Of a stretch of 64,000 bases of DNA, positions 36,310 through 59,002 are shown piece after piece. This DNA is from Wickerhamiella versatilis. Its lineage: Eukaryota. Under the pieces are notes generated by a model. That model was not told where the DNA came from, did not search any database, and saw nothing but the letters and a program-made list of their open reading frames with translations. Position 1 is the stretch's first letter, and each line of letters opens with the position of its first letter. The DNA lies in contig JAQOWU010000008.1 in NCBI GenBank assembly GCA_030867685.1, positions 4,340,001 through 4,404,000 on the forward strand, in the 5' to 3' direction. The translations under genes were made by a program, and so were the position numbers.

Positions 36310-36975
36310 TTAGCCAGTGGCAAGCTTCTTTAGCTGGGTAATATCGCCATTGAAAATATCAGAGTCGCCACCTGCGGAATAAGAATCCGCATTTTGCCAA
36401 ATAGTCTCAAAAGGCCAGCCTCCGGGGGCGGCCTGAGGTGAGGATCCCCAGCTAGCAAGCATGAGGGGAGAATTCTTGCTGAATTTTGTACTATCTCCAG
36501 TACATTCCTTCCACCATGATGGAGAGGTGTACAAAATTGGGTAGCGACCTGTTTTGGAGTGATATGTATCGACAAAGTCGCTGATATAGTTGACGGTAAA
36601 GGAGGCGCTTCCTGGGCAGACACCCTCCAGATCTAGCATACCTGGAAGGGTTATTCCGTCATCACTCCATCCTCCACCATGAGCGAGAAAATACTCCGCC
36701 TCAGAGGCACCATTTCCATAACTTGCAAAGTGGTAACCTCCACGAATTAGGCCCGCCTCAGTAGCTCCCGTATACTGCTCACTGAATTCGGGGCTGATAT
36801 AGCTGGTACCCTCCGTTGCCTTAATGACAACGAATCGGGCACCATTTGAATAGGCAGATTTGAAATCTACATTGGGCTGGTAGCTAGAGATATCAAATCC
36901 TTGCACGGAGGCTGCGGAAGCAGCACCAATCATATATCCTAAGAAACCCAGACTGCCAATATTGTTCAACCTCAT
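36310..36975 (-). CDS. Secreted GH25 lysozyme (Chalaropsis-type N,O-diacetylmuramidase)
   Basis: Signal peptide, VQGFDISSYQ, IKATEGT, IRGGYHFA, GGGWSDDGITLPGMLDLE (catalytic D and DxE). Confidence 0.93.
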   Translation of the reverse strand: MRLNNIGSLGFLGYMIGAASAASVQGFDISSYQPNVDFKSAYSNGARFVVIKATEGTSYISPEFSEQYTGATEAGLIRGGYHFASYGNGASEAEYFLAHGGGWSDDGITLPGMLDLEGVCPGSASFTVNYISDFVDTYHSKTGRYPILYTSPSWWKECTGDSTKFSKNSPLMLASWGSSPQAAPGGWPFETIWQNADSYSAGGDSDIFNGDITQLKKLATG

Positions 36976-37203
36976 TTTTTATTGGGAATCTTCACAGAAT
37001 TTATTTTTTAGGCAATAATATATATATTAATATGGGCTAGGAGGGGGCAAGGAATATGAATTCGACCAACCAGATGCCTTGCTTGCATCGTACTTATGTG
37101 TAAGATGATCACCGAAATTGTCTTGCATGAGACCGCAGGTCCTTCGACATTGCTTTATATAAATAAACTAATAATTATACTTCCAGTTTGCACATTGCTG
37201 TAA

Positions 37204-38355: not shown

Positions 38356-38969
38356 AATGCTGTATATTCAAGAGATGAAAATCAATGTTACGAAATTACA
38401 AGTTGAATTATATCTTAAATACTATATACTTAGGCAGCAAGAGCGATAAGCTATAGACTGATTTTAGTGCATTACAGAACATTTTTGATTCAGTAATAAT
38501 ATTAGCCAGCAAACGGTTACTTAAATGTTTTGACCAGAGACAAAGCGTGATACTTTGAGTGCACACACAAGCGGAGTATCTAAAGTTATCCCACCACAGT
38601 CTATAGCAAAATTCAGAAATAAAACAGTTAGAATTTCAGCTCAGACAGAAAATTCAGTGTCACTTCGCTTTCGAGATATAACGCCACATCGAATCCCCGT
38701 CCTCGGTGCCCGAATCCATAACTGTGACTATGCCATCGCATACGTAACGCAGTTTTCCGATATAAAGTTGGAGGAGCCCCATACCTCTCTTTTTAGCTAT
38801 AATATATAATAGTAAGAATCAAAGTTTAATAATTAATGATACTTCACGCTACCCAATCTCTGAGTTTTGTGAGCTAGTTAACCATCGGAAAATGTCGTCG
38901 GAACTTGATTGTCGATTACTCATATTTTGTGGGAGACTACTGTTGACTCAATCTTTCTTGTCTATTGAC

Positions 38970-39545
38970 ATGGCAATTGAGCCTAAGCATGTTGTATTGA
39001 CTGATGGATCAGATGCAACGGTATTCACTGTTGCATCTGCAGAGGAAGTCACTGCTGATATTGCAAGAAAAATGTGCGAAATGTACAATTATGAGGTCTC
39101 AAGGGGTCAAACGTTTCCCCTCGATGAAATACTAGACATAAGTAGTTTTTGTGACTACTGGATACCGCCTTGTTGTGGAATTATGGTATCTGGCTATCAT
39201 CACAAGTTGCCGTCTGATGGAAGCACTGTGCTAGCAACATACTTTATCAAAAAAAACTATCCCTACGGTAGGTGCTCCCATATCGGCAATGCTGCCATGA
39301 TGGTAGATCGTAATGCGCGGAGAAAGGGTATTGGAAAGATTTTAGGTTCTTGCCTGCTTCAAGATGCAAAAGCGTTAAGATATACCTACATAATGCTGAA
39401 TCTGGTGTTTATCACTAACGTTGCTTCACAGAAAGTCTGGGAAGCCATCGGATTCGAAAAAATTGGGCGCATACCTCACGCAGTTAAAGCAGAAGGATAT
39501 CCTCAGCCAGTCGATGCACTAATTTATGGAATGACACTTTCGTAA
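38970..39545 (+). CDS. GNAT N-acetyltransferase, Mpr1/Spt10-like
   Basis: YFIKKNYPYGRCSHIGNA, ARRKGIGK, NLVFITNVAS..WE.IGF..IGRIP. Likely start 38970, with an in-frame ATG also at 38892. Confidence 0.85.
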   Translation: MAIEPKHVVLTDGSDATVFTVASAEEVTADIARKMCEMYNYEVSRGQTFPLDEILDISSFCDYWIPPCCGIMVSGYHHKLPSDGSTVLATYFIKKNYPYGRCSHIGNAAMMVDRNARRKGIGKILGSCLLQDAKALRYTYIMLNLVFITNVASQKVWEAIGFEKIGRIPHAVKAEGYPQPVDALIYGMTLS

Positions 39546-42784: not shown

Positions 42785-43392
42785 ATCACTTACCTTACCT
42801 CTCCGATATTTGTTACACGAGAAGAGAGGGGTAGATCGTGTGCCTTGGTAGCAAATCTTCGCGATTGTTCCACACTTGAAAACAGGAAATTATGTCTAAA
42901 GATTACATAGATACAATCTACTAGATCGAGACTATATCTATGAGTTCTTAGTAGTATCTAAAGCAGAGGGTTAATTTTCCACTGACTAACCAGCCAGATG
43001 TTAGCCATGCTGAGTACAACTAGTAAATGCTTAAGGCTAAATTTGGACACCAAAAAAAAGGTGATGCAGGACCTCTAATCTGATGGCTTGCTGAACATTC
43101 TTTAGAGGGCATTTGTCAATGTCCTAATCTTTCCTTACCACCAAAGTATTATAAAGACGATCCTTCTGTACAACAATACCAAATACGACAGCTCGAATGT
43201 TTTCGTGGCTCAGGACCACATGACTCGCTGGTTCGCTGGTGTACATAGGTGCGAGCAAACTATTGTAGCCAACTTGAGTAGGTAAGGTCAGAAGAGAAAC
43301 AGAGAGGTAACAATTCAAACCTCGATAGGTCTTTATACAAAACATCTAGTTCCACACCATCGTAACAGGTATCAATGATTATATATATTTAT

Positions 43393-44442
43393 CTATTGCA
43401 GACGTACCACAATCTTATAGCCTGATGCACCATCTTGCATCGCCTTGAAAGCTTTAGGTATGTCATCGAGCGAATTACCGAGCACATGAACCGGCAATGC
43501 TTTCAGGCCCTTTGCTTTAATGACTGAACTTACTTGTTTGATGATTTCAGGTCCCTTCTGGAACACAGCAGGTGGCGCAGGAACTTCCGTGTCACCGAAC
43601 TTTATTTTGTCGTGTAGGAGGAAGAAAACCATTATACCGTGCACAGTTACATTTTCAGGGGCCTTTACATCAACGGGGAGGAACACATTGAAGTCGACCT
43701 TCTTCGATTTGGATGCTACTTCCAGCGCCTTGCTAGATGTGGCTGAGCTGCTAAATGCGTCGAAAATCATATCAAAATTATCACCACCTAGTTCGCGTGA
43801 CTGCTTGACCCAATCACCGTTACGATCCACAAAGTGTCCAATTCCTTCCAATAGAGACTTATACTGAGCACCAGCCACAACAACAACCTCGTAACCAAGA
43901 TATTTCAGAAGCTGTGCGGACTCGTAGCCAAGTGAAGTTGAAGCACCATACACAAGCGCCCAGGAGCCCTTTTTACTATCCTTGACAAGATCTATGCCGT
44001 TGTATCCCACTATGCTTGCTGCAGCTGTCCATGTACTGAGGGCATGTGCCGCTGCCGCCTCATAATGAGTAGCAACTACTTCGGATGGGATTTCAGAGCC
44101 TTCTCCAAGTTCCAGGGAAGGGAACTTGGTAACAAAGTCCTCATGCGTTTTCACTTCATTCGAAAAAGCCCCTTGCCAAGGCTCCAAGGGGTTGGCGCCT
44201 TTAAGCATGGCAGCTACCTTGTCCCCAACTTTCAGCGAGGTAACTGCCACGCCTACCTCTATTACATCACCGGCGAGGTCACAGCCCACACCAGTATTTT
44301 CAACGGCAAGCTTGTAATCACAAGGGTTCAGAGCCACAGCCTTTGGTTTGATTAGAACCTCGTGGGGACCAAGCTCAAGCTGAGGCACACTCTTGGCTAC
44401 AGGCGCACCTTTTTCCATAACATAAAGAGTACGGTTAACCAT
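43393..44442 (-). CDS. MDR-superfamily zinc-independent enoyl/quinone reductase (ToxD/YCR102C-like)
   Basis: AVALNPCDYK, GCDLAGDVIEVG, LVYGASTSLG, SGYKIVV. First ATG at 44442. Confidence 0.87.
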   Translation of the reverse strand: MVNRTLYVMEKGAPVAKSVPQLELGPHEVLIKPKAVALNPCDYKLAVENTGVGCDLAGDVIEVGVAVTSLKVGDKVAAMLKGANPLEPWQGAFSNEVKTHEDFVTKFPSLELGEGSEIPSEVVATHYEAAAAHALSTWTAAASIVGYNGIDLVKDSKKGSWALVYGASTSLGYESAQLLKYLGYEVVVVAGAQYKSLLEGIGHFVDRNGDWVKQSRELGGDNFDMIFDAFSSSATSSKALEVASKSKKVDFNVFLPVDVKAPENVTVHGIMVFFLLHDKIKFGDTEVPAPPAVFQKGPEIIKQVSSVIKAKGLKALPVHVLGNSLDDIPKAFKAMQDGASGYKIVVRLQ

Positions 44443-46653
44443 CTTGTACTGATTTAATTGATCGGGGATTGACAATCAAGGAACCTTATATAGTCGCTAT
44501 CTTACTAAATTATAGAGGTGAAGGGTCTGGAATTCCTTCGAAACCTTAGTAAGTACGCTTTAGCCATAGGGCCGTTGATTTCCTAGCCTGTTGAGTGAGT
44601 ATTTAACAACCAATGGAAATCACATTTTAACTAATAGGCTATAAATGCAAACCTTTGGACCAAGAATTGTTTTTAGTAGAACTAGAGCCATCCCTTATTA
44701 CCTTCGTGCCGCGATGACTAAAGCACGCAATGCACATATTGCTTTGTTGAATAATAGATCGTCAATATTAACGACTGTAAACTCTGGTGACAACGTTTCC
44801 TGAGAGCAAAAGCGAGATATGTAAAAGAACTTGTAATAAGCATAGTATAACAACATGTGTTACTGAGTTTGTACAAATCTGTGATTGGAGCAGGCCTAAG
44901 TAGACGGAAATAAAAGCGTATAAGGACTTTTTAAAAATTGTGGAAGACAACAATAATACTCAGAAATCTTAAGCGCTCATGAACAAAATCGAGATGCAAA
45001 AGAAATATTTGAACGTGATATATTGGATTCGACTCGACTATCATGATTTGGTCATTAGATAGTACTATATGCATTAAGCAAGTCAATTTAAGTTGAGTAG
45101 AGCCACGCGAGTATCAAAAACTGCTGTTCTGTGTATTCTTTATGTTGTACCCTAATAGAAAGCTACCCAGCCTTTATAGTATCGTGACTTTAAAAGAATA
45201 GCACCCTTACTAGGCTAAATATGACTATGACAGTCCTACTCTCGCTAATAATTAGCACTTCGAAAGGAAGAAATAGCTCATTGTTAATGGTTGTTTCTGT
45301 TTGTGGTCGCAGGAGCAGCTATGCAGATACTACGTCGTCAGGGCGAATGTATATTACATAAACACATTGATACCCGATATGCGAGATGTTGATAGAATAG
45401 ATTTAGATATAGTATATTTTAGGCTAATTGCTGATAGCATTTATTTCAGAAGGCGTCCCTAATTAAATATATGGTCCAGCAGCTCTAATCGTAAAAAGTG
45501 AAATCTAACCAAGCCGGCGTATGTCTCAGAGCTTACTGCATCGAGCATTGTAAGCTCCTATCCCCCGTTGTTGATCTGGTGAAACAATGGTTTGTGTGAC
45601 CCAATTTGATATTTGCCCGATAAAGTGATGCTTCAGCTCCACTCATACTATAATTGTGATACCGCCTTTGAATAAATTGCAAGAGAAAAATAATCAGCTA
45701 GGTATAGAGTCGCTCCAAACCTGGGGGAAACATATCGGCATAAATACAACTCATGATTTTCATTTGCAAAAAAAATTGCCAAAATCTTTATAAAATGCTA
45801 GAATACATTCCCATAAGCCTTTCGGGCTTATCACTCATTGGATACCACAAGCTAGCTTAATGCGAGCGATACGTTAAGAACAAAGTAATTAAATAAATTT
45901 CTACGGTATTTTAATTGAAATATGCGGCAACTGCTATCTCTTGGCAGCAATATCATATCTATGGGGATTGCTCTTGATATAGTAAAATTTTTGCCAGTAT
46001 CGACTGGCACGTATATAATTCAGTACCAGACAGCTAACTGAATTTGTAGGTTACTGAAATCTAAGGAGTATGTTTTTGCACAAAGAACAGAATTTTGGTG
46101 CATATCGGTGTTATATAGCAACGATATCTTGGAACTCTTGCACTTAATAATGGTCCGGGGGTCTAACACATAAGCGCTGGTATGTACGTTGACGAAACCA
46201 TGGTCAGAAAAGCAGCAATAGCAGACTAGAGCCCATTTTAGATCTTAATAGACTGATATTACTGGCGTATGTCTTCTGACATAGCTAGAACCTTGCGAAT
46301 CACGAAGCATCGAACAAATCTGCGAACTACCTTGCATAATATACACTCGGATAAGTCCGATTAAGAAGTAATAGTTCAATAGATTTGAAACCTTTTAGCT
46401 AGAAGAACTAACATTAGCCCTATTTTCTATTTTTCGCTTCCGCATAGGGTATATCAGCCAGACATGGTTAGGGTAGGGTATAATTTGTAAAGTCGCTCTT
46501 AAATACTACATAGAATCAAGCAGCCAGATCCGACTCCTGTGGCTCATGACCCTCGCCCTCCGTTTCCTATGATTCTGCCCCGGTTATACGATAGATAAGA
46601 AATTTATTGGTTTTCAAAATTAAAAGTTTCTCATCGGATCGTTATCTTGGAAA

Positions 46654-48211
46654 ATGAAGCTCGATATCTTTGAATTAAGACAGAGTAGCGAGTCCCAAAG
46701 AAAAGATCATGAGAAAGGCTGGATAGCTGATATACATCTGGGATGTTCAGAATCTCTGAACCGTGAGTACTCGATGCTGAGTGTCTTTTCATTTACGATA
46801 TCGATTTCGGCCCTTTTTGCAACAGTAGGAACGTCATTTGCTTATCCTTTGATAGCTGGAGGACCAGTATGTATTGTATGGTCATGGCTAATAGGTGGTG
46901 TAGGCTCCCTTCTCATCGCATTGTCAGTTTCAGAACTCGTAAGTGCCTATCCGCGTTCTGGAGGGTTGTACTATGTATGCAGCCGTGTTTTTCCTGCGGA
47001 ACCTAGTTGGCACGGATGGGCCCCGCTGATGGCATGGGTCAATGGGATACCTTAGTTTAGGTGGACAACTGGCTTGCGCAGCTTCCTCAGAGTGGGGTGG
47101 CGCTCAAATGGTTCTGAGTGCCGCTTCAATGGGGTCGGACTTTACCTATATTCCTACAGACTCCCATACTGTCGGTACGGTGAGCGCAATCATTCTATTT
47201 CATGGTTTTATTAATTGTCTACCCACAAAATATGTGGAACGTTTAGGTAGAGTCTACTTTGTGCTACACTACGCTGCGCTCGTTGCGGGCGTGATTACTC
47301 TCCTGGTATGTACGAAGGACAAGAATAATGTTGACTACGTGTTTAAAAAATTTGATTCGACCTCAGGATGGTCTCCAGATGGCTGGTCATTTATGTTTGG
47401 CTTCCTTGCTGTTAGTTGGACACTTACCAATTATGATGCACCTGCACACTTGTGTGAGGAGACCAAGAGCCCAGATACCAAGGTGCCTTGGGGTATTGCC
47501 ACTGGAAATTCAGTTACAGTACTCCTTGGTTTTGTTTACAATATAGTCTTATGCTTTTGTATGGGTCGGCCAGATTCTATCGTTGATGCTTCTCTGCCTG
47601 TAGCACAAATATACTATAACCAGCTTGGTAAAGCAGGAGGTATCACATTTACCATACTAATGTTTCTGGTAATGAACTTTGCTTGCATTAGTATAATCCA
47701 GGCTGCAAGTAGAACAATGTGGGCTCAAGGAAGGGACAATTTATTTGGAAGACGAGGTTCGCGACTAGTAGGAAGGGTCAATCACGTTACGAATACTCCA
47801 ATAAATTCTGTATTAATCTCTTCTTTCCTGTGTATCTGTATAAACTTGATTGGGCTCGGTAGCGACGAGACAATTAATGCTATATTTAATGCTACACCAA
47901 TTCTTATTGATTGGTCCGCATGCATACCAATTATTGGGAAGCTACTTAATCCCAAATTATTTAAACGTGGTCCCTGGCATCTGGGAAAAGCATCGACTGC
48001 TATAAATGTCGCTTCAGTCCTGTGGACATCTTTTGTGAGCATTGTTTTTGTTATGCCCAGCTCAATGCCAGTGAACAAAGAAAATATGAATTACTGTGTT
48101 GTTTTCATAATTGCTCTATTGTTTTCATCTCTACTAGGATGGCGATTTGGTGGTAAAAGAGCTTATAAAGGTCCTGAGGAGGAATCAGAGATCGAATACT
48201 CGGAAAAGTAG
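46654..48211 (+). pseudogene. Fungal APC amino-acid/GABA/polyamine permease (Uga4/Tpo5-like), split by a 1-nt frameshift
   Basis: ORFs 46654-47055 and 47042-48211 join into one permease (SELVSAYPRSGGLYY...WVNG|YLSLGGQ...YDAPAHLCEET) if one G is removed from AATGGGATAC (47044-47046). Could be an assembly error. Confidence 0.85.
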
Positions 48212-48304
48212 GGAAAGTTCTAACCATCAAGCTTTTTTGAAATAAGCTTCTAAATTTTAACGATAATTTGAATTTTTTAGGAATAAAAAAGAAAAAAATT
48301 TAAT

Positions 48305-49759
48305 CTAGTTCCATATAAGCAATTTCAAGGGTGTCGGTTCATAACCACTGCATGGGTTATTGAGCTGGGGGCAATTTGAGATCAGCACCACTAGGTCCAT
48401 TTTGGCTTTCATCTCTACATATTTTCCTGGGCCTGATACACCATCAGCAAAGTCAAGCACACCATCTGGGGAGACAGGGACATTCATGAAAAAGTTAATA
48501 TTATGAGCGATATCGCGTTTGGTGATCCCAAACTCTGGATGCAGAGCTGTTGCAAGCATCCAGTTGTCACGGCATGAATGCATATGTCGCCTTTCCAGAT
48601 CATATCGGACAGTGTTGCTCTCACTGGCACATGCTCCACCAAGTGTATCATGCCTACCACATGTGTCGGCTGTAATCTCTAACATTTCATTACCCAGATT
48701 TGAAAGAAGTTTGGTGCCCGTACTCAAATACAAATTTTTCTGTTCCCGAATTGTATCCATGCAGCTATAACGCTCTGAGGTATCATCTGCGCGAAAGAAA
48801 AGCGTATCCGCGGCTTCATTGCCTTCAACGTCTACAATTCTTAAGGTTTGTCCTTTCCTAACCTTTCCAATGTAATGATCGCCGGCATCAATGACGTAGT
48901 GAGTGATAGCATTTTCCTCACGTTTGATGCTCTCCAAAAGACGAGGGTTTTCAAATTTCATATTAGCGAACCTGTCCACCACATCGAAGCTGCTTTTGTC
49001 ACTAGAGTCATGTAATGATAGTGAGCTCAAATTCCGTAGTCCTAAGTGATAGAGACGATTATTCTCAAATCCTCTCTTGTTTTCAGGACAGTGTTTAAGG
49101 CACAAGTCGGAAGATAGCATGGGAGGTGCTTCACTGAGGTTGATATCAACACCTCTCTTGATATAATTTAGGCTCGAATCCATAGGATGTGGACAGGTGT
49201 GGATAATTACAAGTGTGTCCATCTCGAAACGAAGTGTAACACTACTTCCAGGCTTACAATTTCCAGGAACGTAAGCCAGCTCCCCGCGATCGTCACATTC
49301 CACTTTACTGAAAATATTCAGGTTTGCAGGCATATCTCGTCGTCCGAGGCCATATTTGGCCATCTCAATAAGAAAACTTTCGTATCCGGTTTGAGTGCGA
49401 TCGTTATGAGCTGACTGGAAGCCAACTTCTTGCCAAAATTTACGCAGCATGAGATCTCTAGTAAGATTCCCACCCACGCAATCGTGCCAACCCACATTGT
49501 CTGCGACAATTGAAGCAAAAATTCTTCCCATATCAGAATAGATACAATTTCCACGTGACAACTTGAATGTATGCTGACACTTTAACGTATCGGGTAGATT
49601 CAGACGCTCCAACTTATTTTCAGGGTTGAAGAATAACATACCAACATTCGTATCTTCATATTGGGTAGACAATGTCATTGTGGTACCTTGACGTAGTCGT
49701 AATGACCAGTGCTGGCCACCGGGTAAATGTGTAGTGTAGCTGAATTCTTTTTGTTCCAT
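48305..49759 (-). CDS. cgdAB: Fused carboxyguanidine deiminase CgdA-CgdB (two urea-carboxylase-associated DUF1989 proteins in one ORF)
   Basis: N-half LPGGQHWS...ERLNLPDTLKCQHT...YSDMGR...WHD...CPHP. C-half GQTLRIVDVEGNEAADTLF...DTCGRHDTLGGAC...NINFFMNVPV...SNCPQLNNPC. A Ser-rich linker separates them. Confidence 0.9.
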   Translation of the reverse strand: MEQKEFSYTTHLPGGQHWSLRLRQGTTMTLSTQYEDTNVGMLFFNPENKLERLNLPDTLKCQHTFKLSRGNCIYSDMGRIFASIVADNVGWHDCVGGNLTRDLMLRKFWQEVGFQSAHNDRTQTGYESFLIEMAKYGLGRRDMPANLNIFSKVECDDRGELAYVPGNCKPGSSVTLRFEMDTLVIIHTCPHPMDSSLNYIKRGVDINLSEAPPMLSSDLCLKHCPENKRGFENNRLYHLGLRNLSSLSLHDSSDKSSFDVVDRFANMKFENPRLLESIKREENAITHYVIDAGDHYIGKVRKGQTLRIVDVEGNEAADTLFFRADDTSERYSCMDTIREQKNLYLSTGTKLLSNLGNEMLEITADTCGRHDTLGGACASESNTVRYDLERRHMHSCRDNWMLATALHPEFGITKRDIAHNINFFMNVPVSPDGVLDFADGVSGPGKYVEMKAKMDLVVLISNCPQLNNPCSGYEPTPLKLLIWN

Positions 49760-50111
49760 AATGCGACTGTAAAAGTTGTGAAGACTGTTACCATAAGATA
49801 TATCAATATATACTCCGCGGACTTAGTATCAAAATCTCGCTACAAATTACCCTGCAACTCGGAGCGACGGTTACCAGGATCGGCAAACGGACGCCGCAGC
49901 TAGTTGCATAACTTTGTCATGGTAACGAGTACTGCATATGAAGAAATGGCAATTTAGAGCGAATAAGCCACTTTACTTTATTTTAAAATATGAGATAGAT
50001 ACTAGTGGAAAGTTATAGCGATGATATGTGTTTAATCACGGTGCTTAGAATCTCAATCAGATCTACAAATAACCGCTATACCCTTCAATTTAATTCAAAC
50101 AACCGCTTCAC
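49760..50111. promoter_or_regulatory. Bidirectional promoter between cgdAB and the carboxylase
   Basis: 352 bp between divergent ATGs, with a GC-rich core carrying four CGG triplets and three GTTACCA copies. Confidence 0.6.
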
Positions 50112-53100
50112 ATGTTCGATAAGGTATTGATAGCGAACCGTGGTGCAATAGTAACGCGAATTCTTCGCACCTTGAAACGATTAAAGATAAAAGCGGTTGT
50201 TGTATATGCTGAAAGCGACCGCGAAGCGCCATATGTACATGATGCGGATGAATCCTACTCTCTCGGTGATGGAACAGCTAGCCAAACATACCTTGACATG
50301 GAAAAAATTCTCATTATCGCTCGCAAAAGTGGAGTGGAGGCTATACACCCTGGATATGGGTTTCTATCGGAGAATGCCGACTTTATTAACGCCTGTGATA
50401 AATCAAAAATTGTCTTTCTTGGTCCTAAGGCACATCATGTTCAGGAATTCGGCTACAAGCATCGGGCGAGGCAATGTGCTGAACGAGCAGCTGTAGCACT
50501 AGTGCCTGGTTCTGGACTTCTTGATGATGTGGAAAAAGCTCAGAAAGTAGCTCAAGAAATAGGTTTTCCCGTGATACTCAAATCAACTGCTGGTGGGGGA
50601 GGTATTGGTATGCAGGTGTGTGAAGACTCCTCGGCTTTGAGTCGATCTTTTGAGTCTGTACAAACTCTCAGTAAGCGTAATTTTGGGAACGGAGATGTCT
50701 ATATAGAGGCTTTTATACCTAAAGCCCGTCACCTGGAAGTCCAGATATTTGGTGATGGTACAGGCAAAGTAGTAGCTCTTGGAGAGCGGGATTGTTCATC
50801 GCAGCGCCGCAATCAAAAAGTTGTTGAAGAATGTCCAGCACCCGCACTGCCCGATCGTGTAAAACAGGAAATTCATGACACAGCTAGGCGCCTCGGGGAA
50901 TCGGTTAAGTACCAAAGCGCAGGCACTGTAGAGTTTATCTATGACGTACCTCGTCAAAAGTTTTACTTTCTTGAGGTCAATACGCGACTTCAAGTAGAGC
51001 ATGGGGTCACAGAACTAGTTTGGAATGTTGATCTTGTCGAGTGGATGGTTCGTCTAGGGGCAGGTGAGCTGCCTCAGTTAGACTCTCTAAGGAGTAACCT
51101 AGCACCTTCTGGCCATGCTATTCAGGCAAGAATATATTCTGAAGATCCCCTACATAACTTTCGTCCTAGTTCAGGACTTCTCACAGAAGTGAGATTTCCC
51201 GAGTTCCATGGACTACGAATTGATCACGCACTGAAGGCAGGAATTGAAGTCTCGGCGCTTTATGACCCCATGATTGCGAAGGTGATATCTTTCAGTTCTA
51301 ATCGCAACAATGCTTGTGACCTGCTAAGGGAATCACTTGAAAATACTCAGATTTATGGAGTCATCACGAATAAGGAGTGGCTAGTAGCTCTACTTACTAG
51401 TAGAAGCTTTTTATCCGGAAATATTTATACTCAATGGTTAGAGTCATTTCAGTGGTTACCAGATGCAATCGAAATACTAGCATCAGGTACCCTCACGACT
51501 ATTCAAGATTATCCTGGCCGCCAAGGATATTGGAATGTCGGTGTTCCTCCCTCTGGGCCCTTCGATGACTGGTCCTTCCGACTTGGAAATCGCCTTCTAG
51601 AGAATCCAGAGAATGCTGCAGGATTTGAGATAACGCTAAATGGACCCAAAATACAGTTTTTCGTCGCAACCCAGATAGTAATTGCTGGCTCATCATACTC
51701 AGCGACACTCAATGGAAACCCTATCCAGCCGTGGGTAGTTATTGATGTGAATGTAAGGGATATACTCTCTATGGGCTCTGTATGCAATGGTATGAGAAGC
51801 TACCTATTGTTCCGCGGGGGTGTCAAGTGCCCTCTGTATTTAGGCTCACGTAGCACGTTCACCCTGGGACAATTTGGTGGCCATGTTGGGCGCTCACTGA
51901 AGACAGGAGACCAACTTGGCCTCAACAAGCTTCCTCCGGTTCGAACTCGTATTCTTAATCCTTCCCTATTGCCAAGATATTCTAATGGCGATGGACTCTG
52001 GGAAATATCAGTATGCTATGGACCTCATGGCGCCCCAGATTTTTTCACAGAACAGGACATCAATACTCTATTCAGTCACCAATGGAAAGTTCATTATAAT
52101 TCAAGTCGTACTGGTGTTAGACTTATGGGACCGCATCCTGAGTGGGCCCGTAGTGATGGTGGAGAAGCAGGTCTGCACCCGTCTAATATACATGACAATG
52201 CATATGCATTTGGTACAATTGACTTTACTGGAGACATGCCTATCATCCTCGGTCCTGATGGACCCTCTTTAGGAGGTTTTGTCTGTCCTGCCACAGTAAT
52301 CCACAGTGATCGCTGGAAAATAGGGCAGTTGGCACCCGATGACAGAGTTAAATTCGTTCCTGTCTCAATGAATCAAGCGCAAGCCATTGAGAGACAGTAC
52401 ACTCATGCTCTAGAAAACTTATCCCCACTATGCCTGCCTGCTATTATACCATCTAAAGGCTCACCTATTCTACGTGAAGTAGAAGCAAGTGAAGCCGGTG
52501 AATGTATAACATATCGTTGTGCTGGTGACGATTTTCTACTTATCGAGTTTGGACCCATAATTCTCGACATATCTCTTCGCTTTAGGGTGCATACCTGGAT
52601 GCTTTGGGTAGAGTCGCATAAATTACCGGGAATAAAAGAATTGACGCCAGGAATACGCTCTTTGCAGATACACTACGATCCCAGCAGATTGTCGATAGAA
52701 GCACTTTTGATTCATTTAAGGCAAGCTGAGAATGAGCTGCGCAGTATTAATGATTTAGAAGTTGAGACTCGTGAGATATTCCTCCCAATTTCTTGGGATG
52801 ATCCTGACTGCCAAAAGGCAATCGATCATTACCAGCAGAGTGTCAGACCAGGAGCACCATGGTGTCCAAGCAATTTAGAATTCATCCGTCGAATCAATGG
52901 ACTTAAAGATATCAGTCAAATAAGAGATATTATTTTTGATGCTAGCTATCTTGTCATGGGGCTGGGTGATGTATATCTTGGTGCGCCAGTGGCCACTCCA
53001 TTAAATCCAACACAACGGCTCGTAACCACAAAGTATAACCCAGCTCGTACATGGACGGCAGAGAATTCAGTTGGTATAGGTGGCGCTTACCTTTGTGTTT

Positions 53101-53711
53101 ATGGGATGGAAGGTCCTGGTGGATACCAATTTGTCGGGCGGACATTGCAAATGTGGAATCGTTACGAGAGTACCGAATATTTCAGTAACCCCTGGTTATT
53201 GAAGTTTTTCGACCAGTTGCGATTCTATGAAGTTAGTCATGACGAATTGATCAGAATACGTCGAGACTTTCCACATGGTCGTTTCAAGCTGAATGTTCGT
53301 CAGAATACTTTCCGATTAGCAGACTACGTCGAAGATATGAAGAAGATTCAAGAGGATGTCGATGAGTTTCGCGTAAAGCGCGAAAAAGCTTTTCAGGAGG
53401 AAATTGCCAGATGGCATGCGAATGGTCAATTCACGTTTGAAGAAGACCCGAAGGAGTTGTACAGTAATGATAACCCAGTTGTTGAAGATGGCGAGCTGCA
53501 GGTTGAAAGTCCAGTCTCGGGGAACATATGGAAAGTGATGGTGAATGTTGGCGATTTCGTACAGAAAGACGACACACTTGTACTTATAGAGTCGATGAAA
53601 ATGGAACTCGCGGTATGTGCCCAGTGTAATGGAGCTATTGAGAGAATTCTGATCAAGGAAGGGGTTATGACTACCAACGGTCAGCCTTTGATCGTTATGA
53701 AAGAAATATGA
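50112..53711 (+). CDS. uca: Stand-alone bacterial-type urea/guanidine carboxylase (biotin carboxylase + carboxyltransferase + BCCP; no allophanate hydrolase domain)
   Basis: MFDKVLIANRGAI, FLEVNTRLQVEHGVTE, GLHPSNIHDNAYAFGTIDFTGDMP, TKYNPARTWT and biotinylation site ESMKME. 1199 aa versus about 1830 aa for yeast Dur1,2. Confidence 0.95.
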   Translation: MFDKVLIANRGAIVTRILRTLKRLKIKAVVVYAESDREAPYVHDADESYSLGDGTASQTYLDMEKILIIARKSGVEAIHPGYGFLSENADFINACDKSKIVFLGPKAHHVQEFGYKHRARQCAERAAVALVPGSGLLDDVEKAQKVAQEIGFPVILKSTAGGGGIGMQVCEDSSALSRSFESVQTLSKRNFGNGDVYIEAFIPKARHLEVQIFGDGTGKVVALGERDCSSQRRNQKVVEECPAPALPDRVKQEIHDTARRLGESVKYQSAGTVEFIYDVPRQKFYFLEVNTRLQVEHGVTELVWNVDLVEWMVRLGAGELPQLDSLRSNLAPSGHAIQARIYSEDPLHNFRPSSGLLTEVRFPEFHGLRIDHALKAGIEVSALYDPMIAKVISFSSNRNNACDLLRESLENTQIYGVITNKEWLVALLTSRSFLSGNIYTQWLESFQWLPDAIEILASGTLTTIQDYPGRQGYWNVGVPPSGPFDDWSFRLGNRLLENPENAAGFEITLNGPKIQFFVATQIVIAGSSYSATLNGNPIQPWVVIDVNVRDILSMGSVCNGMRSYLLFRGGVKCPLYLGSRSTFTLGQFGGHVGRSLKTGDQLGLNKLPPVRTRILNPSLLPRYSNGDGLWEISVCYGPHGAPDFFTEQDINTLFSHQWKVHYNSSRTGVRLMGPHPEWARSDGGEAGLHPSNIHDNAYAFGTIDFTGDMPIILGPDGPSLGGFVCPATVIHSDRWKIGQLAPDDRVKFVPVSMNQAQAIERQYTHALENLSPLCLPAIIPSKGSPILREVEASEAGECITYRCAGDDFLLIEFGPIILDISLRFRVHTWMLWVESHKLPGIKELTPGIRSLQIHYDPSRLSIEALLIHLRQAENELRSINDLEVETREIFLPISWDDPDCQKAIDHYQQSVRPGAPWCPSNLEFIRRINGLKDISQIRDIIFDASYLVMGLGDVYLGAPVATPLNPTQRLVTTKYNPARTWTAENSVGIGGAYLCVYGMEGPGGYQFVGRTLQMWNRYESTEYFSNPWLLKFFDQLRFYEVSHDELIRIRRDFPHGRFKLNVRQNTFRLADYVEDMKKIQEDVDEFRVKREKAFQEEIARWHANGQFTFEEDPKELYSNDNPVVEDGELQVESPVSGNIWKVMVNVGDFVQKDDTLVLIESMKMELAVCAQCNGAIERILIKEGVMTTNGQPLIVMKEI

Positions 53712-53775
53712 GCCAGGTTAAACTTTCTTTAGATTATTATTGAAATTATGTTATATCGTCTGATTAGTGAGCATG

Positions 53776-54195
53776 CTAAATTATCGTCACATTATATACC
53801 GTAGACAACATTAACTTACTTACCATTTTGAGGCCCACAACACCACCTACTATCATAGATAAGAACACAAATTTAGTTAAGTCCATGGACTCAGTACCCC
53901 ACAGTACAGATACACTTACTGTCGCGACCCCGCCTACTGCAGTCCACACCGCATAAGCCGTACCAGTTGGTACAAAACTCATTGACCAACCCAAACCTCC
54001 CATACTTATAGAAAGACCAACTAGGAAAATTGATATAGGTGCAGCTTTGTGTGGCCCCTCCACATTCCCGAGAGCTGTAGCCCAAACGGCCTCGAACAGT
54101 CCGGACACCAGCAATATTAACCAAGCACTTTGGTTACTGTTCGCAGCAAAGCTTCCGGATTCTTGTTTGAGCGAAAATGAATTTGGAATCCACAT
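53776..54195 (-). CDS. gdx: SMR-family guanidinium exporter Gdx/SugE, bacterial type
   Basis: AWLILLVSGLFEAVWATAL (membrane Glu13 and Trp16 equivalents), ISM, PTGTAYAVWT, GVVGLK. Four TM helices with short N- and C-terminal extensions. Confidence 0.88.
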   Translation of the reverse strand: MWIPNSFSLKQESGSFAANSNQSAWLILLVSGLFEAVWATALGNVEGPHKAAPISIFLVGLSISMGGLGWSMSFVPTGTAYAVWTAVGGVATVSVSVLWGTESMDLTKFVFLSMIVGGVVGLKMVSKLMLSTVYNVTII

Positions 54196-55052
54196 TTCGT
54201 TTTCTTGTACTCCAGCATTTTAATCAAACTTCTTATACTTTGTATAGCCGGGGACTCGTTCTTAACTTCCCTCAATAGACATCATGACTAACACACCTGC
54301 GTGATAGCGTGCTCGGTCTCTGTTACGTTCTCTGTTACTTGTCTTTAGTAATTGGATGTCATTAGTAGTTGGATATCAGTTAAGGTTTCAGGTTTCCTAA
54401 GTTGAGCCGCGCGACATCCGTTAAGGTATTAGCCACAACGTGGAACGGTTCTAGCTAATTTATGAAAAGGAATGAAGCTAGATGGTGTCGCAAAAACAAA
54501 TCATTAATAAAATCTCTAAGCTGATTCTCATGATGTGGCTATAATGGTATTGGTTATTTTTCGACTGTATTCTGCTGTTACGAGTATCTGTATGGTCATA
54601 GAGGCATCACAGCAATCACCCCAATCCCCGCCATTTTCCAATTTTTTTCCTGTGTTAGGCTGTTTATTACATGCGATGATGTTCCATGCTTCACAAAATG
54701 TGAAAACACATATTATGATTGATAATACCTCAGATGCCTTTTTTCAGACGTATTTGGGCCTTTACTAATTTTGAATGATCTGTTAATATAAGATCAGCAA
54801 CCAGCTATAACTCATCATGCAGCACTGTACTCGCACTTTCTTGTATAAGCTTTGTTAAAAATACATTAATTCCAGTAGTCAGTAAATTTGTTTTTGTTTC
54901 TAGCGACTAGAATACCGCCGGGGTTTCGCGTTTCTGGCAGTGTCGAACTGGGGTATTATTACTATGACTAATTTGATGAGTAGCATACGTAACAAACAGG
55001 TTAAATCAAGCCGCGGCTTACGCTTCACCATTTTTTAAAGGGGCTTTGATTA

Positions 55053-56180
55053 ATGTATAAGGTACTTGTTCTCGGTGGATCATTTGCCGGTGTATGCATC
55101 TCACATGCCCTCCTGAAACAAAATTCAGACGTGCACGTAACCCTAGTAAACCCCCACGATGATTTTTACTTTTGCCTAGCAGGGCCCCGCATATTTGCAG
55201 ATCCGAGCTTTTTTAAGCCAGAACAATATTTACACTCCATAAAGGAAGCATTTAAGAAGTATGGGCGCAGGTTTGAGTTTGTGAAAGGCTTGGCTGAGGA
55301 CATCGACCTAAATGACAAAACCGTACTGCTCTCAAGTTCCCAGAGACTTTCATACGACTACCTTGTAATAGCTACTGGTAGCAAAACAACATTTGATGCT
55401 TTCAAACCATCAGGCGATTTAAAAGAAAGCATTAAAAACCTTCAGGATCAAATAGCCAAATCTAAAAGTATAGCGATTGGTGGTGGTGGACCTTTAGGTA
55501 TTGAAATTGCTGGAGAAATTGCAAACTCGTATCCATCAAAAAGCCTTGTACTCATTTGTGCTACAGATCGGTTATTGGACACACTCAAGCCTTCTGCTGG
55601 TACTAAGGCGAGAAACCTTCTTGCAAAACAGAATGTTAAGGTAATTGAAGGCACGAAGGTAAAAGAATATGTGGATGGAAAGGTCTATCTCACGAGTAAT
55701 CCTATGTCGAAGGTGGTGAAGAAGTCCAAAGTTACTGGATACGTAAGTAAAGAAGCAACTTTCGATAATTCAGGTGAGCCGCTTGATGCAGATTTGTATA
55801 TACCGGCCACAGGTGTCACGCCAAATAACAGTGCCATTCCCAAATCCTTATTGACAAGCAGCGGATATGTTAAAGTTAACAAGAACATGAAAGTCGCGGA
55901 CTATGTATATGCTGCCGGAGATGTGACAAATATTTCCGACAAGCTCGCTAGCAGAGCCATGGATGAGGCTAAGGTAGTAGCCTCCAATATAAGTTCAGAG
56001 GTTCGCGGTACAAGGCCTTCTAAGAAATTTAAAGAAGGGCCATTAATGATGCTTGTACCCATAGGCCCTTCGACAGGGACAGGCCAGATCTCCAACATAA
56101 TCATTAGTGGCTTTTTGATCAAATACATTAAGGCCAAAGATTTTCTGATATCATTCGGTAAATCCATTGCATATCAGTAG
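55053..56180 (+). CDS. AIF/AMID-like FAD-dependent pyridine nucleotide oxidoreductase
   Basis: VLVLGGSFAG, YDYLVIATG, IGGGGPLGIEIAGE, YAAGD. Confidence 0.88.
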   Translation: MYKVLVLGGSFAGVCISHALLKQNSDVHVTLVNPHDDFYFCLAGPRIFADPSFFKPEQYLHSIKEAFKKYGRRFEFVKGLAEDIDLNDKTVLLSSSQRLSYDYLVIATGSKTTFDAFKPSGDLKESIKNLQDQIAKSKSIAIGGGGPLGIEIAGEIANSYPSKSLVLICATDRLLDTLKPSAGTKARNLLAKQNVKVIEGTKVKEYVDGKVYLTSNPMSKVVKKSKVTGYVSKEATFDNSGEPLDADLYIPATGVTPNNSAIPKSLLTSSGYVKVNKNMKVADYVYAAGDVTNISDKLASRAMDEAKVVASNISSEVRGTRPSKKFKEGPLMMLVPIGPSTGTGQISNIIISGFLIKYIKAKDFLISFGKSIAYQ

Positions 56181-56561
56181 ATAGTCAGGATATGACGAAA
56201 TGCTTAATATGTTCCTTTAATCCTGAATATACCAATCAGGAGATTTTATCAGCTCTTTAATTATGGTACTAAGATTATGTGATCGATTCGCTGGTAAATA
56301 ACGTCTTTGATTCATAGTTGCCAAGAAGACGTAACAACGAAATGTCTATAAGTAATTAGGGTCTGTAGAAGTCGATTCCTGAAAATACAATGTATTTCTG
56401 CGCTGGAAGCCATGTCGTTGACTTCAATTTGTAGCAAGATGTTACTGCATCCCAAGATTGTGTAATTTATTTTACATTGCTATGATAGCTTCCCTGGTTC
56501 TCAGATATGATTTCTGCAATATTAGTAATATATCCCCTCCCCACAGGGACAGAAAACGTAA

Positions 56562-57518
56562 ATGCGAGCAGCGGCGGTAGCAGCAGCAGGCGGTCTTGGA
56601 TTGACTATATTACTCTATGTCAAACGCTCCAGGTCATGGGAAATGATTGAACCTAGTTTGAGGAACATTGTGGTTCGTTTCAAAACACCAAACGCAAGTA
56701 CTTGGATCTGGATACTTAGAGTCCTCGGACGGTTACCGCAACCTCTATATCCTAAAACAGTAGTAAGGAAACATGATATCAATGCGAATGGGCTTCAATT
56801 GTATCTTTACTTGCCGGAGAAGGCCACATCGAGAGGAGCTCTTTTCTACGTGCATGGTGGTGGTTTCATCGGTGGAAGTGCACCGCTTTATCATAACCTT
56901 TTATCAGAAATCGCAGGGAAGGCGAAGTGTGTAGTCGCGCAGGTTGAATATCGGTTGGCCCCTAAGAATCCTTATCCAGCTGGGATGGATGATAATTGGG
57001 AAGGATACAAATGGCTCCATGATCATGCAGACGAACTAGGGGTCGATAGAAATTATCTGGTGATAGGTGGAGACAGCGCGGGTGGAGGCCATGCAGCGTC
57101 ATTGGTACATAAGGTTCATGATGAGTGGCCGGCGGCTCAGCCTGTGCTGCAGTTGTTGAATTATCCGATGCTTGATGATAGAACACCCAAACAGTTTCCT
57201 CGTGGGGAGCTCATCTGGACGTGGGAATCAAATCAACACGGTTGGAAGTCGTATATAGGACAAAATCCAGGGAACTATACAGTAGCGGCGAGGAGAAATG
57301 ATCTTAGTGGACTACCTCCTGCTTGGATAGGTGTGGGTAGCCTTGACTTATTCTATGAGGAGGATCTTACCTATGCGTCGAGACTTAAAGAAGCTGGAGT
57401 TCCTTGCACACTAGATATTGTCGAGGGCGCTTATCATGCGTTCGACTTCCTACCCACCCAAATCTCACTACAGTATCGAGAGAGAATGATAGCAGCTTTA
57501 GCTAAGGCTATCAATTGA
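56562..57518 (+). CDS. HSL-family alpha/beta-hydrolase esterase
   Basis: HGGG oxyanion hole, EYRLAP, GDSAGG nucleophile, DLF and YHAFD. Confidence 0.92.
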   Translation: MRAAAVAAAGGLGLTILLYVKRSRSWEMIEPSLRNIVVRFKTPNASTWIWILRVLGRLPQPLYPKTVVRKHDINANGLQLYLYLPEKATSRGALFYVHGGGFIGGSAPLYHNLLSEIAGKAKCVVAQVEYRLAPKNPYPAGMDDNWEGYKWLHDHADELGVDRNYLVIGGDSAGGGHAASLVHKVHDEWPAAQPVLQLLNYPMLDDRTPKQFPRGELIWTWESNQHGWKSYIGQNPGNYTVAARRNDLSGLPPAWIGVGSLDLFYEEDLTYASRLKEAGVPCTLDIVEGAYHAFDFLPTQISLQYRERMIAALAKAIN

Positions 57519-58105
57519 TCCGCTTGGCCCATTATGAATGTTATCTCATTTGCTTGGCTGTCTCTATTCTGTTCTTGGGTTTGGTTTTTGGTTTATCACT
57601 ATGCTTATCGCAAATCTTCTATAAATTTGAGAATTCTTTTTTTTTGGATATGAAAATTATGACACACTTTCTAAGAATTAAAGTTACTCCACAGGGTACT
57701 CACTGTTACACTTATTTACTTAGGGGAAAGTTAAGCGAAAACGTAATGTTTCGCTGATGTAACAACCGGAACTCCGAAACACTTGAAGTTCTATGGATGA
57801 TAGGGTTATGTATACCGCGCTAAAAGGTTCTTTTAGTGCTCTGCAATATCCAATGGATGAAAGATATTTTTACTAGAGCTAACAATCTGACCGGTTGGAT
57901 CAAAAGTTTTGTCACTCCTGTTTAGAAGCGCCGCATTAGTCCCATTCGTTGTATGCAGGAATGTTAGGAATGTTTTTGTAAGCTACGGTCCCCCGAGCTT
58001 CCACCTACGTAATTAATTTGATAATCGAAGTATTATTAAGTATTTATTCTCTATAAGTATATGACGCGATATAAATCCAAGTTAGCAACTGCGGGAATTT
58101 TAGCC

Positions 58106-59002
58106 ATGTGGTCAAATCTCTCTTACCTATTACTCTTGGCTACTGCCCGCTGTAGCCCAACTTGTGCGGCACCCACATCCTCACTATCAATAGCGGAGGT
58201 CTATAATCCTGGACTTGGATCGATCTTCGATGTTTCTTCTGAAATCTTGGAAACAGACGATTATCTGGTACTTTTTGACACGCAGTTCCAGAAAAATGAT
58301 TCAGAAGTATTGGTTCAGAAGATTAAAGACCTCAACAAACCTTTGAAGACAGTTTATGTTACTTATTCAGATCCCGACTATTACTTTGGGGCTGCTGTCA
58401 TTCAAGATGCTTTCCCGGATGCGCAGATAGTTGCTACCCGTCCAGTTGTTGATGCTATAAAGGGAAATGAGGAATTGAAGCAAAAGACCTGGGATAAGCA
58501 GCTGGGTGATAATGCTCCAGACCGGATCGTAATTCCTGACCCTATTGATGTGGGAAGCTGTCATGTTGTACTTGATATTGAGGGACACAAAGTGTATTCC
58601 TACGGAGTTCTGGATAACCGTACATTCAATTGGATTCCTTCACTTGGCACAGTGCTTGGTGGTATACTTGTTGATGTGAATGCTCACGTTTGGTTAGCTG
58701 ATACGCAGACTACAGAATCGCGAGAGATATGGATTCAATCATTGGATCAAATTAAGAGCCTTAATCCAGCAAAGGTCATTCCAGGCCACTTTTACAAGAA
58801 TAGCAATGGCACCGACCCCTTTTCTATCGCATCCATTGATTTCACTGCGGAGTATATCCGTAAATTTAATGAGGAAAACTCTCGCACTGGTAACTCCACT
58901 CAGCTCATCGATGCAATGACAGCAATATATCCTGATCTCGCAGGTACCAGCAATCTCGAAACGAGCGCTCAGGTCATTAAGGGTGAAATTCCTTGGCCAT
59001 AG
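58106..59002 (+). CDS. Secreted MBL-fold metallo-hydrolase-like protein, proteobacterial type
   Basis: VYNPG..SIF.VSS, DTQFQKND, TYSDPDYYFG, HVWLADTQT, VIPGH, C-terminal KGEIPWP. Signal-like start at 58106, alternative ATG 58061. Confidence 0.82.
   Translation: MWSNLSYLLLLATARCSPTCAAPTSSLSIAEVYNPGLGSIFDVSSEILETDDYLVLFDTQFQKNDSEVLVQKIKDLNKPLKTVYVTYSDPDYYFGAAVIQDAFPDAQIVATRPVVDAIKGNEELKQKTWDKQLGDNAPDRIVIPDPIDVGSCHVVLDIEGHKVYSYGVLDNRTFNWIPSLGTVLGGILVDVNAHVWLADTQTTESREIWIQSLDQIKSLNPAKVIPGHFYKNSNGTDPFSIASIDFTAEYIRKFNEENSRTGNSTQLIDAMTAIYPDLAGTSNLETSAQVIKGEIPWP

Follow-up and report, generated by a model that had tools for sequence, protein, structure and literature searches.

A yeast chromosomal cluster of cgdAB, carboxylase, SMR transporter and permease genes as a candidate route for guanidine assimilation

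Bacterial assimilation of free guanidine has been described as a three-step route, in which guanidine is carboxylated to carboxyguanidine by an ATP-dependent carboxylase, carboxyguanidine is converted to allophanate and ammonium by the deiminase CgdAB, and two more ammonia are released by allophanate hydrolase (PMC12186494). An operon of this type in Vreelandella boliviensis is reported to be induced by guanidine and methylguanidine, with growth on methylguanidine as sole nitrogen source (PMC12508155). For budding yeasts, the enterobactin operon is reported to have moved into the Wickerhamiella/Starmerella group and to have been integrated with the fungal importer ENB1 (10.1101/399394; PMC11043216). 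Here, a stretch of 64,000 nucleotides from Wickerhamiella versatilis (GCA_030867685.1, contig JAQOWU010000008.1, positions 4,340,001 to 4,404,000, forward strand; hereafter the window) was analysed. Four genes were found within positions 46654–54195, in the order permease, fused cgdA-cgdB (cgdAB), stand-alone carboxylase and SMR transporter (open reading frame (ORF) reading, standard code), confirming a four-gene cluster at these coordinates. Most likely, the cluster enables the yeast to assimilate, and to tolerate, free guanidine (probability about 0.7).

Compared with the operons of Halomonadaceae (V. boliviensis; Sinn et al. 2025, PMC12508155) and enterobacteria (PMC12186494), as far as those are set out in the accessible parts of the two papers, the cluster is alike in its orthologous carboxylase (60–65% identity) and CgdA and CgdB halves (59–79% per half), in the adjacency of the three core genes, and in the predicted chemistry from guanidine through carboxyguanidine to allophanate. 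It differs in that no guanidine-I or guanidine-II riboswitch, ABC importer or allophanate hydrolase is present in the window, in that cgdA and cgdB are fused and inverted relative to the carboxylase gene, with a divergent promoter between them, and in that a fungal APC permease and an SMR gene of an unrelated donor are attached, all of this in a eukaryotic host. The enterobactin transfer, in the parts of its sources available, is alike in that several genes of one bacterial operon lie together on a budding-yeast chromosome and a host transporter is involved; the present cluster differs in being catabolic and nitrogen-related, in having another donor family and a three-gene core with two genes fused, and in that the last step is presumably carried by a host enzyme, a gene from a second donor has joined, and a host permease lies inside the cluster. 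Derivation from one operon was found for cgdA, cgdB and the carboxylase gene, and not for the SMR gene. The urea amidolyase Dur1,2 and the stand-alone urea carboxylases that the preliminary description of this DNA had rightly ascribed to some fungi (Strope et al. 2011, PMC3073912, as far as available) share the enzyme superfamily, the domain order and an inferred bacterial origin with the yeast carboxylase, which differs in being closer to Halomonadaceae than to Dur1,2 and in being accompanied by CgdAB. In the same paper, the stand-alone carboxylase is absent from every Saccharomycotina examined, and all seven Saccharomycotina in its Table 2 have urea amidolyase and lack both urease and the stand-alone carboxylase.

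Homologous loci were collected from metagenome contigs (579 of 598 stretches confirmed, best 80 kept) and from GTDB genomes (578 of 586 confirmed, best 80 kept). A carboxylase match lay on the deiminase strand in 72 of the 80 metagenome loci, directly downstream in 71 of them. The best genomes were those of Halomonadaceae (Halomonas, Vreelandella, Billgrantia, Franzmannia) and Salinisphaera, with 63–68% identity for the deiminase and 60–65% for the carboxylase, followed by other Gammaproteobacteria at 51–58%. In Halomonas sp. HK25 (L082), the gene order is guanidine-I riboswitch, ABC substrate-binding protein (TIGR03427), ABC permease, ABC ATPase, cgdA, cgdB, guanidine-II riboswitch, carboxylase and allophanate hydrolase; with Rfam, both riboswitches were detected in L082 and in Vreelandella glaciei (L083), and guanidine-II in Salinisphaera (L086). 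The nearest cgdAB and carboxylase orthologues thus lie in operons with guanidine-I and -II riboswitches, in agreement with the preliminary description, in which these families had been called guanidine-riboswitch-controlled in bacteria. The comparison indicates that the contiguous core cgdA-cgdB-(guanidine-II riboswitch)-carboxylase of a Halomonadaceae/Carnimonas-like operon was transferred to the yeast. There, the deiminase genes form one ORF by way of a disordered linker and point away from the carboxylase gene over a shared promoter, and nothing is left in the cluster of the two riboswitches, the ABC importer or the bacterial hydrolase. Rfam families searched in 44400–55100 at E values up to 1, riboswitches included, gave 0 matches, the 64-kb window yielded no remnant of the importer, of the hydrolase or of genes farther downstream in the operon (best tblastn E 0.047), and matches to sigma-70 promoters and terminators around cgdAB stayed at chance level.

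Trees were built to place the deiminase and the carboxylase (fungal carboxylases left out). A first maximum-likelihood deiminase tree contained 53 rows (the window, 17 listed proteins, loci L081–L092 and every third locus of L093–L160); a second contained 41 rows, after 25 long-branch or redundant rows had been dropped and 9 Halomonadaceae genome rows added; and the carboxylase tree contained 36 rows, picked from 114 full-length matches pre-screened with FastTree. The 53-row tree united the yeast rows with Salinisphaera and 11 Halomonadaceae in a single clade (support 100/99). In the 41-row tree, the yeast rows (the window, P0001 and P0002) formed a clade (100/100) within a 6-row clade shared with the Carnimonas-type locus L180, P0003 and P0004 (98/89), which itself lay inside a 9-row subclade of Halomonadaceae and Salinisphaera (100/99). 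In the carboxylase tree, the window and P0242 were joined by P0311 (96/85), this group was sister to P0289 and Carnimonas bestiolae P0272 (100/99), and all lay inside a Halomonadaceae and Salinisphaera group (100/99). Since the carboxylase of L180 is 100% identical to P0272, both genes lead to one Carnimonas-like part of the family. None of the 342 Halomonadaceae genomes searched held anything closer than about 70% for the CgdA half or 79% for the CgdB half, which argues for an old transfer, as do the fully ameliorated composition of the genes and their sharing with a second lineage at 71–79% identity.

Both halves of the 484-residue deiminase scored above the NCBIfam cut-offs (TIGR03425, 444.6 against 206 bits; TIGR03424, 417.5 against 285 bits), so that CgdA and CgdB are both present in one ORF. 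The CgdA half is 59–70% identical to Halomonadaceae cgdA, and the CgdB half reaches 79% at most, with the Carnimonas-type cgdB of L180. Alignment of the junction showed a sense codon in the yeast in place of the bacterial cgdA stop, followed by an insert of about 30 residues; the position of this linker is occupied in bacteria by the cgdA stop, a short spacer and the cgdB start, the in-frame spacer being longer in Salinisphaera. An AlphaFold model (mean predicted local distance difference test (pLDDT) 83.7, predicted template-modelling score 0.84) contained two well-folded halves and a disordered linker (residues 242–271, pLDDT <50), and in an alignment of 34 cgdAB sequences the yeast protein conforms at each of the 33 invariant columns. 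The protein search gave 242 matches among 5047 candidates, 120 of them listed; those listed include P0001 at 97%, P0002 at 79%, fused metagenomic forms at 54–61% and bacterial half-length proteins at 52–57%. Among the bacterial and metagenomic loci L001–L160, cgdA and cgdB lie in the same frame in 153 of the 157 with a full-length match, far above the one in three expected by chance, with one stop between them (two or three in a few loci); truly fused genes were found in 4 of the 157, and in Carnimonas the two genes are in different frames. Descent from a fused ancestral gene, translational coupling or read-through may lie behind the shared frame, and an in-frame bacterial pair would be pre-adapted for fusion through loss of a single stop codon.

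Two further observations concern fused forms elsewhere. EukProt contains CgdAB-like fusions from Symbiodinium sp. Y106 (P0011, 52%) and Mesostigma viride (P0016, 45%), and the papers on the 'urea amidolyase system' of Symbiodiniaceae and algae, in their accessible parts, make no reference to DUF1989 or to guanidine. Some of the algal genes assigned to urea may thus act on guanidine, or the two entries may stem from bacterial contamination. P0003, P0004, P0363–P0365 and P0311 represent a lineage with a fused 487-residue CgdAB and a carboxylase, on contigs of up to 242 kb, that groups with the yeast and Carnimonas; its FYMINK/GARP values of 0.9–1.1, against 0.4–0.6 in Halomonadaceae, are of the low-GC type, and it had no match above 62% among the 160 loci. 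This lineage might be another eukaryote, a hint of further eukaryotic lineages with the same module.

The carboxylase scored 1701 bits against the urea carboxylase model TIGR02712 (cut-off 1304), and contains BC, CT and BCCP domains, with all Pfam domains present and the biotin lysine K1163 in an SMKME motif. It is 60–65% identical to the carboxylases of the Halomonadaceae genome loci. In the protein search (120 listed of 8000 scored matches), the best match after the protein itself was P0242 (73%), followed at 64–69% by proteins whose names, among these 120 best, are Halomonadaceae or Salinisphaera except for one labelled Endozoicomonas sp.; no fungal-named protein was among them. The carboxylase domain of the Kluyveromyces lactis urea amidolyase (KlUC, 3va7) aligned over the full length (1152 bits over 1192 residues), as compared with 1090 bits over 661 residues for Halomonas.

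The SMR protein belongs to its family by PF00893 (67.3 bits, cut-off 23.7), and among solved structures it is closest to Gdx-Clo, an exporter of guanidinium (6wk5; 66.7 bits, as compared with 27 for EmrE). The binding-site network of Gdx, reported as E13, W16, S42, Y59 and W62 (PMC9574504), aligns with E35, W38, S64, Y81 and W84 of the yeast protein, and these columns are invariant in a 45-sequence alignment. The yeast protein is thus like the Gdx exporters (Gdx-Clo, PDB 6wk5; PMC9574504, as far as available) in its four-helix SMR fold and these conserved residues, and differs in being yeast-encoded, extended at both termini (23 residues N-terminal, 14 C-terminal), free of a riboswitch and below the curated SugE cut-off. 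Its lysines are nearly balanced, with 3 on one side and 2 on the other, and it has no arginine; a homodimer prediction scored 0.01, which is evidence neither way. Among the cluster proteins compared, it alone has an N-terminal targeting extension relative to the bacterial proteins.

The SMR search yielded 706 homologues among 1557 candidates (120 listed). The N-terminal extension is common to P0122 (89%) and P0123 (60%), and among the matches listed SugE proteins follow at 55–63%, all the named ones being from Actinomycetota (Rothia, Gordonia, Aestuariimicrobium and others). A 53-row tree was built from the window, 46 proteins (45 listed matches and the cluster member P0370) and 6 Halomonadaceae matches. 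In it, the yeast trio (100/96) lay in an 8-row clade with unnamed proteins (96/89), itself nested in a clade of 47 rows (96/93), in which each of the 13 named members is from Actinomycetota. The best SMR protein of each of 10 Halomonadaceae and Salinisphaera genomes, the Carnimonas type included, was 24–37% identical to the yeast protein, and an SMR match lay within 10 kb in 5 of the 160 deiminase loci, at 26–36% identity. Separate acquisition of the SMR gene from an Actinomycetota-like source is therefore strongly favoured by these comparisons, and the earlier view of one transferred guanidine regulon gives way to a Halomonadaceae/Carnimonas-like cgdA-cgdB-carboxylase core with an SMR gene that groups with SugE of Actinomycetota. 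As a separate observation, one Halomonadaceae contig (G232, C74) carries, some 3 kb away from cgdAB, an SMR gene whose product shares 33% identity with the yeast protein.

For the permease, the nearest Atlas clusters were choline-transport and amino-acid permease families (100% Eukaryota, mostly Ascomycota), and the bacterial 'urea carboxylase system' permease model matched weakly. By these matches it is a host (fungal)-type gene beside the transferred ones, and a candidate guanidinium importer. In the proposed pathway, guanidinium would be imported by this host-type APC permease; carboxyguanidine would be made by the carboxylase with ATP and bicarbonate, and would be turned into allophanate and ammonium by the fused CgdA-CgdB (for both steps, orthology, adjacency and intactness speak in favour); allophanate would be hydrolysed by the hydrolase domain of the host urea amidolyase Dur1,2, encoded outside the window; and the Gdx-type SMR protein, a proton antiporter in bacteria, would clear excess cytosolic guanidinium as a safety valve. 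In Saccharomyces cerevisiae, DUR genes are induced by allophanate, so the imported module might itself switch on the host step. The wider proposal, that the yeast built the cluster from at least two inter-domain transfers and a native permease and plugged it into its own Dur1,2 at allophanate, is put forward tentatively, at somewhat less than even odds.

Integration of the cluster in the yeast chromosome was assessed with public sequencing runs. The stretch occurs in 20 run rows from 11 studies (isolates and food-fermentation, food and sediment metagenomes), and the Logan contigs of the isolate runs sum to about 10–11 million letters. Four runs were mapped on window positions 43000–57600, two of DNA (X1, X10) and two of RNA (X24, X21). 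In isolate X1, possibly the source of this very DNA, a single contig of 85,688 nucleotides spans the whole interval with 0 mismatches and 1 gap; metagenome X10 has polymorphisms of its own, and its depth is even (170–296×) over cluster and flanks. The cluster genes (GC 0.42–0.45, third-position GC (GC3) 0.36–0.41, codon-adaptation value 0.79–0.82) resemble the 23 other genes of the window (GC 0.41–0.53, GC3 0.34–0.57, codon-adaptation value 0.74–0.84), as compared with a GC of 0.55–0.67 in the related bacterial loci. Since a spanning contig, even metagenome depth and yeast-like composition coincide, the cluster is a real chromosomal part of an intron-poor ascomycete yeast, and contamination or chimeric assembly is effectively excluded. 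In the sequence data, the budding-yeast assignment is based on the genes present, on the scarcity of introns in the ORFs and on the size of the assembly. The preliminary description had placed three bacterial-type genes and a fungal permease inside yeast DNA, and had named a contaminant or chimera with unsupported junctions as what would undo this; domain, homology and contig evidence agree with the placement, and the junctions are bridged by the X1 contig, with even X10 depth.

A second lineage keeps the genes at 60–79% identity (deiminase P0002 79%, carboxylase P0242 73%, SMR P0123 60%), and at least one further yeast-like lineage is thus taken to share them. The longest contig is 19,793 nucleotides for both P0001 (deiminase, 97%) and P0122 (SMR, 89%), and 33,593 nucleotides for both P0002 and P0242; linkage of the genes in these relatives is suggested by the equal longest-contig values only.

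The two RNA runs (X24, poly-A; X21) bear the same species label and come from a strain differing by 1–5%; depths are sums of both read directions. In X24, the 3' part of the permease gene and cgdAB were covered at about 5–12×, the carboxylase gene at 0–1.4× and the SMR gene at about 1.4×, as against about 80–115× over the coding region of a neighbouring dehydrogenase gene, and in X21 there was essentially nothing on the cluster. Since the libraries look unstranded, with reads on both strands, the cgdAB reads are possibly antisense. The low RNA levels fit a repressed or inducible cluster, and prove nothing. Twelve poly-A reads of X24 begin at 48038, preceded by extra letters that we take to be a template-switch adaptor, and the same kind of tag is found at the 5' end of the dehydrogenase mRNA (44459); position 48038 could mark the start of a plus-strand transcript that begins within the permease gene and continues antisense to cgdAB, or it could be a priming artefact. 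Among the strain differences listed (160 more lie beyond these), 7 synonymous and 1 non-synonymous fall in the permease gene, 5 and 4 in cgdAB (2 of the 4 in the linker), and 18 and 4 in the dehydrogenase gene. In the pyridine-nucleotide disulphide oxidoreductase gene, the RNA strain has 'AC' instead of 54 nucleotides (55814–55869); as one metagenome contig, and hence DNA, has the same change, this is an indel polymorphism rather than an intron.

Several findings weigh against a functioning guanidine pathway of mixed origin. The function, including a preference for guanidine over urea, is a prediction from sequence. No allophanate hydrolase gene was found in the 64-kb window, which, together with the absence of relics, bears out the earlier statement that the window holds no hydrolase. 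Expression was low in the two RNA runs, which are of unstated growth conditions, and the divergent promoter contains 0 GATAA nitrogen-regulation sites; nor are these sites enriched upstream of the permease gene (4 in 854 bp, against 2.6 per kb across the window). The permease gene of the window is frameshifted by an extra G in the GGG run 47044–47046. The letter at 47044 is missing from X1 (21.1 of 21.1 depth) and from X10 (210 of 210), and with one base deleted the permease ORF has 518 codons without an internal stop; since both runs lack the extra base, the frameshift is regarded as an assembly error or a private mutation. For the SMR protein, the SugE model NF008512 scored 69.6 bits, under its cut-off of 126, and was still the best of 19 SMR models. 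An approximately unbiased (AU) test meant to exclude a Halomonadaceae origin of the SMR gene did not reject the tree joining the yeast and Halomonadaceae proteins (p 0.298, 106 columns), so that the two-donor reading rests mainly on identity (55–63% against at most 37%) and on branch support.

Different explanations of the locus itself were weighed against transfer and maintenance of the core. Contamination or a chimeric assembly could be suspected from the bacterial top matches of three genes, but one contig joins the cluster to its flanks at even metagenome depth, GC and codon use are yeast-like, the riboswitches are absent and the genes fused and rearranged, identity to any bacterium is 60–70% (up to 79% for the CgdB half), and poly-A library reads of a different strain map on the permease gene and cgdAB, leaving this explanation a negligible probability. 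Vertical inheritance, in which the genes would be akin to the stand-alone carboxylases of Pezizomycotina and Basidiomycota and lost in most yeasts, draws on the presence of such enzymes in other fungi (PMC3073912, as far as available) and on the fact that the trees contained no fungal carboxylase. It is very improbable all the same, as no fungal name occurs among the 120 best carboxylase matches, the yeast rows of both genes are nested in a bacterial family with high support, and the neighbourhood equals the core of a bacterial operon. The possibility that the cluster no longer has a function, and has been silently decaying since an old transfer, would be in keeping with the near absence of RNA reads from the carboxylase and SMR genes in two runs and with the frameshift in the window; the intact ORFs of 1199, 484 and 139 codons, the 60–79% conservation in a second lineage, the retained invariant residues, the lack of the frameshift in X1 and X10, and the synonymous excess among the listed differences make it quite unlikely.

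Other explanations accept the genes as functional and assign them another task. The cluster could serve urea, in which case the carboxylase would be an additional source of substrate for Dur1,2 from urea and the DUF1989 fusion would have some other substrate. In favour of this, TIGR02712, the model that the carboxylase matches, is a urea carboxylase equivalog, the alignment with K. lactis 3va7 covers the whole protein at 1152 bits, and the preference for guanidine is a prediction. Set against this are the closest bacterial orthologues, which lie behind guanidine riboswitches, the requirement for CgdAB on the guanidine route only, as stated in the available part of PMC12186494, the adjoining Gdx-type exporter, and the Dur1,2 that budding yeasts have for urea already; a urea function is accordingly given a small probability, slightly above that of a relic. 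A marginally larger, and still low, probability is given to a cluster that handles methylguanidine, guanylurea or a similar compound, or that mainly detoxifies rather than feeds nitrogen. Halomonadaceae operons of this type are reported to be extended for methylguanidine (PMC12508155), an exporter belongs to the cluster, and the sequence occurs in food-fermentation, food and sediment metagenome runs, but no MgdH/MgdL-like or other accessory enzyme is present in the cluster, and the tested operon proteins left no relic in the window. Assimilation and tolerance of free guanidine is thus the preferred reading.

The features are collected in Table 1. The 352-bp divergent region is flanked by two convergent pairs, whose 3' ends are 93 and 64 nucleotides apart; the genes given in the preliminary description stand, and their order was corrected to permease, cgdAB, carboxylase, SMR in these two pairs. 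The ORFs of the deiminase (484 codons), carboxylase (1199) and SMR protein (139) are open. CTG codons of the carboxylase gene lie opposite leucine of the bacterial homologues in 58% of cases and CTA codons in 66%; since these values are near each other, the standard genetic code applies, and CTG reassignment was rejected. The flanking genes are long ORFs without interruption and of fungal type (Zn2Cys6 factor, eukaryotic aspartyl protease, GDT1, two-domain CrcB/FEX fluoride exporter, GH76, MFS transporters), and a search for flanking direct or inverted repeats or tRNAs as integration marks gave nothing meaningful.

Table 1. Coordinates of the cluster features in the window, with the basis of each assignment
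Feature	Position	Strand	Basis
APC-superfamily permease	46654-48211	+	AA_permease_2, TIGR00907 on both ORF pieces (133 + 389 aa)
Fused CgdA-CgdB deiminase, 484 aa	48305-49759	-	Two DUF1989 domains, PF09347 389 bits
CgdB-like (UAAP2) half, residues 272-484 and stop codon	48305-48946	-	TIGR03424 417.5 bits, residues 284-483
Linker of about 30 residues (242-271)	48947-49036	-	Junction alignment; pLDDT <50
CgdA-like (UAAP1) half, residues 1-241	49037-49759	-	TIGR03425 444.6 bits, residues 8-238
Divergent intergenic region, 352 bp, cgdAB/carboxylase	49760-50111	.	Presumed bidirectional promoter, read from sequence
Stand-alone biotin-dependent urea/guanidine carboxylase (Gca type), 1199 aa	50112-53711	+	TIGR02712 1701 bits
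SMR transporter, Gdx/SugE subtype, 139 aa	53776-54195	-	PF00893 67.3 bits

Elsewhere in the window, the 2.2 kb upstream of the permease gene (44443–46653) lack ORFs of 80 codons or more, match no RNA family and are almost free of RNA reads. Three adjacent genes in 36310–39545 have a bacterial flavour, namely those of a GH25 muramidase (-), a NagZ-like GH3 beta-N-acetylhexosaminidase (+; NF003740 128 bits, under the model cut-off) and a GNAT acetyltransferase (+), and this trio may be another acquired set, for bacterial cell wall digestion. An MBL-fold metallo-hydrolase at 58061–59002 had a bacterial Vmh family model as its top match (263.6 bits, against a cut-off of 430).

No published eukaryotic cluster of CgdAB, guanidine carboxylase or SMR genes was found in the literature, in line with the remark in the preliminary description that no complete cluster was known from a eukaryote, though the supplementary tables of large yeast gene-transfer surveys may list the genes. 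One such survey (2026, about 600 transferred genes in Wickerhamiella/Starmerella yeasts) does not mention them in the accessible part of its text, and no eukaryotic cluster of this kind is described in the available parts of PMC13376923, PMC13255410 and a 2024 algal preprint. Both the guanidine pathway and the transfer of an operon to a yeast are already known. What is new is that the host is a eukaryote, that the deiminase genes are fused and divergently placed, that the RNA switches and the last enzyme have been lost, and that an exporter from a second donor and a permease of the host have joined the core. A 2025 review, as far as available, expects eukaryotic regulation of guanidine metabolism and names no eukaryotic degradation pathway (PMC12186494).

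If the guanidine assignment is true, the cluster would be the first guanidine catabolic pathway in a eukaryote, and would show a eukaryote on the carboxylase route of a metabolism that has so far been a bacterial subject. To our knowledge, it would also contain the first working SMR transporter in a eukaryote, which raises the question of how a dual-topology bacterial SMR protein inserts and works in a eukaryotic membrane. For the domestication of an operon core by a yeast it would be a second clear case, one in which two genes were fused, the fusion was turned round to share a promoter, the RNA switches were lost and the last step was left to a host enzyme. It would also show genes of different donors and of the host gathered into one cluster. 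The carboxylase gene and cgdAB might suffice for growth on guanidine of any yeast bearing Dur1,2, which would make guanidine a possible selective nitrogen source.

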